In this document: positions 4,929 to 58,098 of the stretch, one piece after another
Layout of the letters: each line of letters opens with the position of its first letter
Position numbering within the stretch: position 1 is the stretch's first letter
Assembly: GCA_045047115.1 (NCBI GenBank)
Contig: JASFYR010000005.1
Coordinates: 32,001-96,000 of the forward strand
Direction: 5' to 3'
DNA: 64,000 nucleotides
DNA from: Sulfurospirillum sp.
GTDB lineage: Bacteria > Campylobacterota > Campylobacteria > Campylobacterales > Sulfurospirillaceae
The notes under the pieces: generated by a model
Databases searched by the model: none
The model's input: the letters and a program-made list of their open reading frames with translations, nothing else
Told to the model about the DNA's origin: nothing
Position numbers and translations under genes: made by a program

Positions 4929-4955
4929 TTGATCCACTATGTGAATAGTAAATTA

Positions 4956-5031
4956 TGGCGACCCCAAGGGGATTTGAACCCCTGTTACCGCCTTGAGAGG
5001 GCGGGGTCCTAGACCACTAGACGATGGGGTC
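4956..5031 (-). tRNA. tRNA-Glu (anticodon CTC)
   Basis: Reverse complement GACCCCA...CCGCC-CTCTCAA-GGCGG...GGTTCAAATCCC...GCCA; 76 nt with encoded CCA. Confidence 0.93.
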
Positions 5032-5041
5032 GCACAAAAAA

Positions 5042-5117
5042 TGGTGACCCGTGTTGGATTCGAACCAACGGCCACCTCCTTAAAAGGGAGATGCTCTACC
5101 GGCTGAGCTAACGAGTC
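5042..5117 (-). tRNA. tRNA-Lys (TTT)
   Basis: Cloverleaf with anticodon loop CTTTTAA, GGTTCGAATCC T-arm, CCA end. Confidence 0.95.
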
Positions 5118-5184
5118 AAATAAACAATCTCTAATATCATAAAATTTAATTTTAAAAATGATTTAAGAAGAGAATTATAAAAAA

Positions 5185-5261
5185 TGGCGCGGCGGACGAG
5201 ACTCGAACTCGCGACCCTCGGCGTGACAGGCCGATATTCTAACCAACTAAACTACCGCCGC
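5185..5261 (-). tRNA. tRNA-Asp (GTC)
   Basis: Anticodon loop CTGTCAC, AGTTCGAGTCT T-arm, CCA end. Confidence 0.95.
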
Positions 5262-5302
5262 AACCTAAAGGTATCTAAAAGTTTAGATACAGTGTCACTA
5301 AA

Positions 5303-5378
5303 TGGTGGTCGTTAGAAGACTCGAACTTCTGACATCCACCTTGTAAGGGTGGCGCTCTACCAACTGAGCTAAACGACC
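5303..5378 (-). tRNA. tRNA-Val (TAC)
   Basis: Anticodon loop CTTACAA, AGTTCGAGTCT T-arm, CCA end. Confidence 0.95.
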
Positions 5379-5421
5379 GATTAATAATGAAAAATTTGTG
5401 TCCAGGTACTCAAAAATATTA

Positions 5422-5497
5422 TGGCGACCCCAAGGGGATTTGAACCCCTGTTACCGCCGTGAAAGGGCGGGGTCCTGGACCACTAGACGATGGGGTC
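5422..5497 (-). tRNA. tRNA-Glu (TTC)
   Basis: Anticodon arm CCGCC-CTTTCAC-GGCGG, CCA end. Confidence 0.95.
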
Positions 5498-5506
5498 GCA
5501 CAAAAA

Positions 5507-5582
5507 TGGTGACCCGTGTTGGATTCGAACCAACGGCCACCTCCTTAAAAGGGAGATGCTCTACCGGCTGAGCTAACGAGTC
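5507..5582 (-). tRNA. tRNA-Lys (TTT)
   Basis: Identical to the copy at 5042-5117. Confidence 0.95.
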
Positions 5583-5637
5583 AAATAAACAATAAAATTA
5601 TACTCACTTAAAGTGTCACCTTTGCAATGAGGATGAA

Positions 5638-13727: not shown

Positions 13728-13921
13728 GTAAAGAGATAAGTTTTGAAGATAAGCTAAAAAGTGCAAAAGAGATTTTAGAAAAGCTAAGTGACCCCAGTAT
13801 CACTCTTAAAGACGGGATGAAAGAGTACAAGAAAGGCATATCTATACTAAATGAAGCAACGAAGATGATAGAAGATGCCAAGTTGGAATATGAAAAACTC
13901 CAACCAAATGAAAATATATAA
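13724..13921 (+). CDS. xseB: Exodeoxyribonuclease VII small subunit
   Basis: SFEDKL...ILEKL...ITLKDGMKEYKKG pattern; 65 aa. Confidence 0.82.
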   Translation: MSKEISFEDKLKSAKEILEKLSDPSITLKDGMKEYKKGISILNEATKMIEDAKLEYEKLQPNENI

Positions 13922-14030
13922 TGAAATTACACAAAATTTTAAATAGTAACTTCTCTGCGCCAGCAGTAGCTTTAGTCGCGAGGAATTTTTGCGGAATTCA
14001 CTTCCGTAAAAAGGGGACAATAATATGAAA
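13921..14030 (+). repeat. Dispersed structured intergenic element, copy A, bounded by ATGAAA direct repeats
   Basis: Shares ATGAAATTACA, GCTTYAGTCGCGAGGAATTT and AAAGGGGACAATAA with the copies at 57236-57402; 27-nt hairpin at 13986-14012. Confidence 0.85.
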
Positions 14031-55544: not shown

Positions 55545-56464
55545 AATATGTAGCAATATTTCCCGGTCAGGGAAGTCAAAAAATAGGCATGGGCAGAGAT
55601 TTTTTTGATAATTCTAAAATTGCAAGAGAGATGGTAGAAAAAGCTGGCAATAGGCTTGGTTTTGATTTTAAAGAGATACTTTTTGAAAAAAATGACAAGT
55701 TAGAACTTACGCAATTTGCTCAGCCTTCTATTTTGCTTGTTAGCATTATAGCATATAAACTTTTTGCAAAAGAGGCTACTCTAAAGCCTGAATTTTTTTT
55801 AGGGCATTCTTTGGGTGAATTTTCAGCCATATGTTCGAGTGGAGCATTGAATTATCTTGATGCAATAGAGTTGGTTTATAACAGAGGTCTATTTATGGCC
55901 AAGGCTTGCGAAGATAAAGATGCCGGTATGATGGTGCTTCTGGGTCTTAGTGATGAAAAAACCAAAGAGATTGTGAAAAATGCACAAAATGATGGTAAGC
56001 AGATTTGGGTAGCAAATTACAATTGTGATGGGCAGATTGTAGTTGCCGGAGATAAAAAAGATTTAATCAGTATGGAGGGTGAGTTTAAAGGTGCAGGCGC
56101 AAAAAGAGCTATGCTCTTAAATATGTCGGTGGCTAGTCATTGCCCGATATTGCAAAGTGCTCAAGGTAAATTGAGTGTTTATTTGCAAAAATTTATAGAT
56201 ACTGATTTTGCAGCACCTATCATTTCAAATGTGACAGCAGAGCCTTACAATACAAAGGAGGATGCAATAAAACTCTTAAATGCTCAGTTGGTAAGCCCTG
56301 TTTTATATAAACAATCCATAAAAAATATCGAAAGCAAAACCGATAAATTTATAGAATTTGGTGGAAGTGTATTAAAGGGAATCAATAAAAAAATAACAAA
56401 AAAAGATACAATCTCCATAACAGATATGGAATCACTGCAAAAGGCTGTATTGGAGTTTAGATGA
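55541..56464 (+). CDS. fabD: Malonyl-CoA-ACP transacylase
   Basis: FPGQGSQ, GHSLGE, ANYN, SVASH. Confidence 0.97.
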   Translation: MKYVAIFPGQGSQKIGMGRDFFDNSKIAREMVEKAGNRLGFDFKEILFEKNDKLELTQFAQPSILLVSIIAYKLFAKEATLKPEFFLGHSLGEFSAICSSGALNYLDAIELVYNRGLFMAKACEDKDAGMMVLLGLSDEKTKEIVKNAQNDGKQIWVANYNCDGQIVVAGDKKDLISMEGEFKGAGAKRAMLLNMSVASHCPILQSAQGKLSVYLQKFIDTDFAAPIISNVTAEPYNTKEDAIKLLNAQLVSPVLYKQSIKNIESKTDKFIEFGGSVLKGINKKITKKDTISITDMESLQKAVLEFR

Positions 56465-57222
56465 AGTTAATACTTGCACAAATATCACCAAAACTCAAAA
56501 AAATATCACCTGATGAATTTCATATATATCTCAGTGATATTGATAAAAGAGTTGATTTGGTACTTTTCCCGGAATTGGCACTAAATGGCTACATGTTAAA
56601 AGATGCAGTTTTTGAAGATGCTTATACCTTAAATGAAATCAAAGAATTTGCTGGGTTATCACAATCTTTTGATTTGGTTTTTGGTGCTGTATTAAAAGAG
56701 GATAATAAGTTTTACAATAGTGCATTTTATTGTTCAAATGGAAAAATTTTAAATGTACATAAAAAAACTGCACTTCCAAATTATGGACTCTTTCAGGAAG
56801 CTCGTTTTTTCTTTAAGGGTGAAGATATAAAGTCATTTGAAACAAAATTTGGAAAAACCTTTGTTGTTATTTGTGAAGAGTTGTATAATGCTCATATTAT
56901 CGCTAAAATTGCAGATGAAAAGCCGGATTTTGTGATTGTAATTTCAAATTCTCCATCAAGAGGTTTTGAGAACGACGGACTTTTAATACAAAAACAGTGG
57001 GAATCTTTGCTTTGCTCTACTGCGCTTTTGAGCGGAGCCAATGTTGCATTCGTAAACCGGGTAGGTTTTGAAGATGGCCTGGGTTTTTGGGGAGGATCTT
57101 GTTTGATAAACCCAAAAGCGCAAATCATCAAAAGAGCAAAGCTCTTTGAGAAAGAAGAGTTGATGGTAGATGTGGATAAAAAACTCTCGGATACTCAAAA
57201 ATATTTACTCAGAGAGTATTAG
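56461..57222 (+). CDS. Nitrilase-related carbon-nitrogen hydrolase with intact E-K-C triad
   Basis: FPELALNGY, HKKTALPNYGLFQEARFF, VICEE, VNRVGFEDGLGFWGGS. Confidence 0.9.
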   Translation: MKLILAQISPKLKKISPDEFHIYLSDIDKRVDLVLFPELALNGYMLKDAVFEDAYTLNEIKEFAGLSQSFDLVFGAVLKEDNKFYNSAFYCSNGKILNVHKKTALPNYGLFQEARFFFKGEDIKSFETKFGKTFVVICEELYNAHIIAKIADEKPDFVIVISNSPSRGFENDGLLIQKQWESLLCSTALLSGANVAFVNRVGFEDGLGFWGGSCLINPKAQIIKRAKLFEKEELMVDVDKKLSDTQKYLLREY

Positions 57223-57235
57223 AAAAGGACATAAA

Positions 57236-57402
57236 ATGAAATTACAGAGCGTTAGCTCGTGCTTCAGTCGCGAGGAATTTGTCAGGGGCTTTGCTCCTTA
57301 CAAAGGGGACAATAAAATGAAATTACAGAGCGTTAGCTCGTGCTTCAGTCGCGAGGAATTTGTCAGGGGCTTTGCTCCTTACAAAGGGGATATAAAATGA
57401 AA
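57236..57402 (+). repeat. Tandem pair (81 + 80 bp) of the dispersed structured element, copies B and C
   Basis: ATGAAATTACAGAGCGTTAGCTCGTGCTTCAGTCGCGAGGAATTTGTCAGGGGCTTTGCTCCTTACAAAGGGGA... starting at 57236 and 57317; third ATGAAA at 57397. Confidence 0.95.
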
Positions 57403-58098
57403 ATTGCTATTTTAGGAGCTATGCCTGAAGAGGTAGAGCCGTTATTAGATTATTTTGAGAGTTATAAAACTGTTGAGTATGCTAAAAATAAATTTTATAC
57501 TCTAACATACAAAGGGTGTGAAATAGTCATTGCTTATAGTAAGATTGGAAAGGTAAATGCCACCATAACAGCTACAACAATGATAGAAAAATTTGGTTGT
57601 GAAAAACTGCTTTTTAGTGGAGTAGCCGGAGCTGTAAGCGATGAGTTGAAAATAGGGGATTTGGTAGTAGCTACAAAACTGGCTCAGCATGATTTGGATA
57701 TATCCGCTTTTGGACATCCTTTTGGATATGTGCCGGAAGGTTCAGTTTATGAAAAAACAGATAAGTTACTCATAGAGATAGCTAAAGAGGTAGCGTTTGA
57801 AAAAAACCTACCCCTAAAAGAGACGGTTATCGCTACTGGAGATCAATTTGTTTGTGATCCGGATAGAAAAAAATGGATAGAAAAAACTTTTGGAGCCGGT
57901 GCTTTAGAGATGGAAGGGGCAGCTGTTGCTCTGGTTTGCAATGCTCTTGATGTACCGTCTTTTATACTTCGTTCTATCAGTGATGCAGCAGACATGGATG
58001 CCGGTTTTGATTTTGACAAATTCTTGGAGTCCTCAGCAAAAATCAGCGCTGGGTTTATAATCACTATGGTTGAAAAAATAATTGATAAAACTAAGTAA
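57397..58098 (+). CDS. mtnN: 5'-methylthioadenosine/S-adenosylhomocysteine nucleosidase
   Basis: MKIAILGAMPEE, SKIGKVNA, FSGVAG, IATGDQF, EMEGAA, RSISD; the longer ORF-track start lies inside the repeat. Confidence 0.96.
   Translation: MKIAILGAMPEEVEPLLDYFESYKTVEYAKNKFYTLTYKGCEIVIAYSKIGKVNATITATTMIEKFGCEKLLFSGVAGAVSDELKIGDLVVATKLAQHDLDISAFGHPFGYVPEGSVYEKTDKLLIEIAKEVAFEKNLPLKETVIATGDQFVCDPDRKKWIEKTFGAGALEMEGAAVALVCNALDVPSFILRSISDAADMDAGFDFDKFLESSAKISAGFIITMVEKIIDKTK

Follow-up and report, generated by a model that had tools for sequence, protein, structure and literature searches.

The window, i.e., the whole 64,000-nt stretch of DNA that was analysed, comes from a Sulfurospirillum genome (G000) and carries on its forward strand the gene mtnN for the MTA/SAH nucleosidase (57397..58098; NCBIfam NF004079, above the cut-off), the 5′ neighbour of which is a carbon–nitrogen hydrolase gene on the same strand (56461..57222; Pfam PF00795). 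Between the two genes, ATG codons at 57236, 57317 and 57397 mark out two stacked units of 81 and 80 nt, which share a stretch of 74 identical nucleotides, in agreement with the near-identical pair described by the initial annotation. Just ahead of them lies a displaced SD-like motif with its ATG (57225..57238, +), which now opens a short upstream frame; relatives have only a short spacer here. Unit 1 (57236..57316, +) comprises a variable, covarying 5′ hairpin with one bulged base (57245..57261), a conserved core of invariant or near-invariant alignment columns, i.e., GCTTYAGT, a subtype-specific linker and, where the 3′ hairpin begins, an invariant GAAT foot (57261..57278), the 27-nt 3′ hairpin itself, in which 10/12 pairs covary (57278..57304), and an SD-like GGGGA with a spacer and the rebuilt ATG (57305..57319). 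Unit 2 (57317..57396, +) repeats this order, with the 5′ hairpin at 57326-57342, the 3′ hairpin at 57359-57385 and GGGGA at 57386-57390. A predicted 54-codon upstream frame, the translation of which is inferred, runs across both units (57236..57400, +), and its stop, TGA at 57398-57400, overlaps the mtnN ATG as had been read from the sequence earlier. A GTG within unit 2 is in frame with mtnN (57340-57396) and would mislead automatic start calls. A consensus scan found no sigma-70-like promoter site inside the tandem.

The same arrangement recurs at a second place in the window, copy A, where a single unit (approximately 13947-14024) lies in a 35-codon frame (13921..14028, +) that opens on the stop of the preceding ORF and closes on the start of a CN hydrolase gene, with an offset of 104 nt, as previously described; metX lies two genes upstream. 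Elsewhere in the window, a tRNA-gene block is duplicated at 4952-5593, with two repeats of 89-92 nt that are 465 nt apart. Rfam models matched only tRNAs in the window, apart from two chance matches around the tandem, and nothing in 16 related loci. An assembly artefact at mtnN is unlikely. Tandem arrays of other variants are found at the same mtnN start in G009, L366 and L372, and the closed genome G013 contains a four-unit array behind rplA, after which no start follows. The sole public sequencing run found, in which this DNA has a small share, spans the junction between unit 2 and mtnN, not the whole tandem.

An iterated profile search at E<0.01 counted 87 units at 69 loci of G000, some of which, at contig ends, may be one array split in two; the best match in the reversed genome was at E 0.55. 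The earlier proposal of a dispersed, RBS-carrying unit at translation starts is supported. Although ORFs of at least 100 codons cover 92% of the genome, 56/58 full units lie outside them, and a same-strand ORF lies directly downstream at 56/69 loci, the remaining 13 being ten at contig ends, two that did not pass the ORF filter and one within the gene for RNase P RNA. The start of the downstream ORF lies within the unit at 40/56 loci (one doubtful) and behind a separate SD at the other 16. Starts supplied by units are ATGAAA in 20/34 cases, vs. 147/886 elsewhere. The rule that each insertion always rebuilds ATGAAA at a length of 2 mod 3 therefore holds as a preference for ATGAAA and a bias towards ATGA coupling; as a rule without exception it fails, given the 16 separate downstream starts, the in-frame units of 81 nt and the units at RNase P and rplA. 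A replichore bias (59/68 vs. 1077/1521) cannot be separated from gene class and lends the reading no support. Candidate half-units that stop after the core number 11, vs. 4-13 in shuffles.

The genes behind the units were identified by scanning 31 of the 56 downstream proteins against a library. One is mtnN; the others include SecY, L11, L13, GuaA, PurS, PurE, ThrB, ArgF, DnaK, ClpB, FlgG, SoxX, Nfo and PdxA, covering ribosomal proteins, chaperones, and purine, flagellar and cofactor genes. A SAM regulon, the alternative offered by the initial annotation, is excluded by the diversity of these 31 genes. Beyond G000, a covariance model of the unit matches 44/151 genomes of the order and 50/61 genomes of the host's family. 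Copy number differs by genus, ranging from 0-3 in g3 to 10-42 in g2, 6-51 in g5 and from 16 to at least 72 in g1, and the repeat was not found in families f12 (0/60 genomes) and f26 (0/53). The best 80 of 118 pattern matches over named genomes are all from Campylobacterota, bar one unassigned bacterium, under the titles Sulfurovum, Sulfurimonas, Sulfurospirillum, Arcobacter and unclassified. Plasmids and phages gave no match, two viral pattern matches having failed the model. A longer subtype of about 120-140 nt has an extra 5′ segment beginning right at the native ATG, after unrelated SD spacers (L135, L149, L159, L173, L181, L203, L222 and L474). No description of the element turned up in the open-access literature searched.

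The structure of the unit is supported by covariation rather than by folding energy, the z-scores of single units being modest (−1.5 to −1.8). In a plain alignment of 51 G000 units, 93% of cells pair in the 3′ hairpin, with 10/12 pairs covarying, and 71% pair in the 5′ hairpin; RNAalifold predicts the 3′ hairpin alone. For 95 units of other genomes the values are 95% and 80%, respectively, although these units were aligned to the model and hence lean towards it. The first hairpin originally proposed, with a CTTCAGT cap, did not survive this comparison (40.2% of cells paired vs. 39.9% in shuffles), and the covarying 5′ hairpin lies just upstream of it. The 3′ hairpin is 27 nt long in 55/56 own and 84/109 external units, and the GAAT(T) at its foot is invariant in 51/51 aligned G000 units. 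G-U pairs outnumber A-C pairs by 38 to 5 (own) and 96 to 7 (external), so that the folded strand is the sense strand, and GNRA-type loops are common. By eye, the 5′ pyrimidines could form a closing stem with the core, the possible partners varying by subtype; the core itself may resemble the sarcin-ricin loop. There are two internal stem-loops and no terminal inverted repeats. The energy needed to open the start region is no higher than at ordinary starts (p 0.28), i.e., no occlusion of the SD by the units was detected as extra opening energy.

Comparison of orthologous starts revealed empty and filled sites, as the initial annotation had anticipated for sister genomes. At mtnN, 10/14 relatives have a short spacer and 4/14 have units or a unit-derived end, and among 80 metagenome mtnN loci the model picks out two, which carry at least two and at least four tandem units of other variants. 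The purS start is filled in 5/30 loci and the thrB start in 2/30, G000 included in both counts, with different subtypes and 1-3 units; at thrB, G009 has a solo SD-ATG end only. One array (L372:1-291) lacks a canonical SD and consists of four or more identical units of 81 nt, all in frame with mtnN; this predicts either an N-terminal extension made of 27-residue repeats or read-through initiation. Every array observed is head-to-tail. Identity is 97-100% within mtnN arrays and 67-85% between genomes, with a median of 67% among the 51 G000 units, so that the tandem is best read as a local duplication of one unit. This pattern favours array growth by local duplication over the repeated fresh insertion that had been suggested. 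The closest mtnN relatives are 84% (genomes) and 78% (metagenomes) identical, and no empty allele was found at strain level, so that the exact ends of the unit are not fixed. Roughly one in two displaced left ends resembles the element rather than native sequence, and the direct repeats flanking the units vary from 4 to 20 nt.

The frame used by the displaced starts is biased. The tail of the unit offers a stop in two of the three frames by construction, and the test is therefore which frame the displaced starts use and whether that frame is open. In G000, an upstream ATG with an open frame is present at 16/39 loci, at distances of 2, 1 and 0 mod 3 in 11, 4 and 1 cases (p 0.007). An upstream SD and start precede 33/99 external gene-start units, with 23, 7 and 3 cases (p 4e-5), and 30 of these 33 frames reach the new start while none forms an in-frame fusion. 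The significance of both counts is overstated by relatedness, since kin and subfamilies are not independent. The 3′ hairpin is free of stops in the ATGA frame in 28/31 cases vs. 22.8 expected and in 50/61 vs. 40.1 when spacers are permuted, column and spacer permutations serving as the null; only 5 and 1 of 1000 spacer permutations were as high as the observed values. The in-frame exceptions are the 81-nt units at G000 C11:27969 and in L372.

One G000 unit is not at a gene start at all but within the RNase P RNA, in helix P12 (G000:C9:162528-162927; L036), where it is closed by an 11-bp inverted repeat. The model matches 9/29 RNase P loci, which were chosen for extra length, most RNase P genes of the order being short with a short P12; besides G000, the matches are in the second copy of G003 and in G015, G016, G070, G084, G098, G097 and G126 (L029, L033, L046, L269, L270, L272, L273 and L274). 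All are in sense orientation, and they belong to families f1, f6 and f20. Several f1 copies share flanks and are present also in low-copy genomes, and they may represent one old insertion with later losses. There are at least two junction types, the G097 unit and the second G003 copy differing from f1 in that GTG- or TTG-AAA letters of the RNA follow the unit. The RNA letters next to the 3′ end of P12 units are thus ATG-, GTG- or TTG-AAA-like although this RNA is not translated, which suggests targeting by sequence and not only selection on translation. The second RNase P gene of G003 (G003:C1:2061-2497; L046) is divergent, is similar to the f6 genes and has a TnpB-like match nearby; it would reflect either a transfer or a binning error.

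P12 harbours other insertions as well. Long hairpins with conserved arms form a second family, present in P12 and apparently also in P3 (L028, L030, L043, L266, L267, L275 and L278), and at mtnN and purS in G004 and G008 (L009, L010 and L340) such a long hairpin replaces the 3′ hairpin of the unit. With this unrelated hairpin present both in P12 and in gene-start units, P12 is a site that tolerates inserts and trades sequence with the units at gene starts. In family f4 (L026, L268 and L277), GC-rich multi-stem extensions of P12, 130-160 nt long, end in a hairpin whose tip is that of the unit's 3′ hairpin, yet the model does not match them. In Rickettsia and cyanobacteria, RNase P RNA is known to contain palindromic repeats, which are likewise dispersed and tolerated in a variable helix of this RNA; unlike the unit, they are not known to carry or target translation starts.

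No mobilising enzyme was identified in the genomes searched, and neither Y1 nor IS110 presence tracks copy number. A co-distributed Y1 transposase, for which the initial annotation had advised looking, did not emerge, with Y1 genes being present in 55/61 family genomes, including 26/28 of the low-copy genus. No Y1 gene or transposase locus flanked by units was found, although fragmented assemblies could hide one. G000 itself has one IS200/IS605 element, one IS110 in an SD and two RAYT-like Y1 genes, each bounded by inverted repeats of TIRYT type (C3:14312-14959, L018; C7:19755-20543, L019), the former having short tandem repeats outside its inverted repeats and toxin-antitoxin-like small ORFs nearby. 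The ends of the unit match no resident IS200/IS605 element and share only a short GAATT-type motif with the left end of the G000 element. Among 35 scanned loci (33 transposase loci and two viral contigs), units lie near three and are ordinary gene-start units there; at 17 transposase loci no unit match was better than E 0.46. TnpB (3/5) was likewise rejected as the mobiliser. The IS110 subgroup in SD sequences (G000:C9:125473-126678, L016; L446-L449) occurs in five genomes, of g1, g2 and g5 only.

With a confidence a little better than even, we infer that this genome-wide two-hairpin family is a non-autonomous mobile element that inserts in sense orientation at or beside ATG(A)-like sequences. 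A unit would be joined to host DNA close to the AT of a start codon, whereby the gene would receive the SD of the unit and the old start would be pushed upstream. Selection would then retain an insertion if the frame of the old start crosses the unit and terminates at or next to the new start, so that the gene is still translated and gains no N-terminal tail, and arrays would subsequently grow and shrink locally between direct repeats, with modules being swapped between copies. The mover would most likely be an HUH/Y1-type enzyme that works on single strands and acts in trans upon the 3′ hairpin, the fixed length, free stem sequence and invariant 5′ tetranucleotide of which make an anatomical case for such an enzyme. 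GAAT is also the right-end guide of IS608. For REPs, the conserved tetranucleotide 5′ of the hairpin is proposed to select the cut dinucleotide via its last bases (PMC8266576); applied to GAAT, this rule predicts a cut between A and T, where the junctions cluster. This enzymatic step is the weakest and is itself rather doubtful, and the HUH link may be regarded as a lead. Several observations weigh against a mobile element: no cognate enzyme was found, the G-U bias and GNRA-type loops fit a constraint at the RNA level at least as well as one on single-stranded DNA, the units are single or head-to-tail rather than in REP/iREP pairs, about half of the displaced left ends are element-like, and the frame statistics have in-frame exceptions and are not independent. 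A variant that is distinctly unlikely, though worth stating, would be an undescribed start-codon-targeting class, in which an unrecognised enzyme joins a sense-strand module at NTGAAA, supplies the target gene with a new SD and turns the old start into that of a coupled leader peptide, the module shuttling between gene starts and P12, which may be its reservoir or origin.

The strong rival is host recombination, which nonetheless seems on the whole rather unlikely. The unit would then be a portable translation-initiation cassette without a dedicated enzyme, spread by gene conversion or by transformation via short SD/ATGAAA homologies and kept for an RNA structure that stabilises or tunes the mRNA. 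The absence of a transposase that tracks copy number accords with this, as do the left ends that are often of element type, the solo SD-ATG end of G009 thrB, the sense-strand G-U bias and the likeness of the G000 P12 unit to two gene-start units of its own genome (85-86%), which exceeds its likeness to any other P12 unit (at most 78%). However, copy numbers differ tenfold to hundredfold between sister genera, P12 insertions with different junctions occur in separate families, a specific reader is suggested by the constancy of the GAAT foot and of the hairpin length, and no tuning role is evident from start regions that are no costlier to open than ordinary ones. That the family descended from a P12 extension and spread as a bacterial SINE is improbable: the three families with P12 units, the f4 extensions with the same hairpin tip in genomes that have no dispersed match, and the shared flanks of f1 copies persisting in low-copy genomes would suit such an origin, but P12 is short in most RNase P genes and behaves as a tolerant sink for an unrelated long hairpin, the P12 unit of G097 retains a full SD, the f4 inserts fail the model, and no reverse transcriptase was found in G000. 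Mobilisation by the SD-targeting IS110 bridge recombinase of G000 is very improbable. This element does sit in an SD and rebuild it, and its subgroup was found only in g1, g2 and g5; IS110 is nevertheless present in only 3/14 g1 genomes vs. 13/28 of the low-copy genus g3 (21/61 in the family), its junction core lies in the SD whereas unit junctions cluster at the start codon, and no unit match was found at its ends. A tandem riboswitch for SAM, SAH or MTA, or another metabolite-specific leader, is hardly credible: the unit is structured, on the sense strand and adjoins the mtnN SD, and metX is near copy A, yet the downstream genes span unrelated functions rather than SAM metabolism alone, 10/14 relatives have no unit at mtnN, a copy lies inside RNase P RNA and Rfam gave no match.

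Among known systems, the closest in anatomy are Neisseria REP2 and Borrelia IR-A/IR-B. These dispersed repeats lie directly upstream of genes, contain two stem-loops, have no terminal inverted repeats and carry an RBS with an ATG at their 3′ side; how they spread is, according to PMC3184786, not understood. Like them, the unit has its RBS and start at the 3′ end directly upstream of genes (the 40/56 loci above) and, like REP2, the two stem-loops without terminal inverted repeats. It differs in length (about 80 vs. 120-150 nt), in the lack of a promoter found in the tandem, and in having stems that covary freely, arrays that are tandem and mosaic, sites that are empty or filled, upstream frames coupled to the gene, and insertions in RNase P RNA. 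In tandem BIMEs, the copies at any one locus are alike and their number varies (PMC3333891). The REP/BIME system of TnpA-REP/RAYT (PMC3333891 and PMC8266576) resembles the unit in being a high-copy intergenic hairpin with a conserved tetranucleotide at the 5′ foot and in forming uniform, variable-number and chimeric arrays, whereas the unit has GAAT instead of GTAG, lies at gene starts where it supplies the SD, forms no inverted REP/iREP pairs and has no REPtron found with it. TIRYTs are subclass 2.1 Y1 proteins (bioRxiv 10.1101/279083). Units of type A end in AAAGGGGACA, which is also the start of the inverted repeats around one of the two RAYT-like, TIRYT-like genes of G000; however, this motif is missing from other subtypes, and low-copy genomes have these inverted repeats too, so the match is probably a coincidence with the SD. 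A classical MITE would have terminal inverted repeats and a fixed target duplication, neither of which is present here. IS900-type elements target translation-initiation regions, and the IS110 of G000 in C9 likewise inserts at an initiation region and rebuilds the signal, but it is autonomous, about 1.5 kb long, equipped with a bridge RNA and without similarity to the unit. From these comparisons, the unit would be a variant of start-carrying repeats with REP2-like anatomy and BIME-like array behaviour; it does not qualify as a REP/BIME-RAYT system, an IS200/IS605 derivative, a MITE or a riboswitch.

The P12 insertions, the frame statistics, the array analysis and the empty orthologous starts are what is new here, and the lack of matches in the two large families f12 and f26 may explain why it escaped notice. 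The origin and spread of start-carrying repeats such as REP2 are posed as an open question in PMC3184786, and the present family makes it testable, since it offers empty and filled alleles, sister genera with 0-3 vs. dozens of copies, and a frame signature of selection for coupling, while insertions in an untranslated ribozyme separate targeting from translation. In free-living Campylobacterota, the initiation regions of core genes, i.e., rplM, secY, guaA, purS, argF and dnaK, have been rewritten by these units, and the family predicts many small leader peptides that are not annotated.
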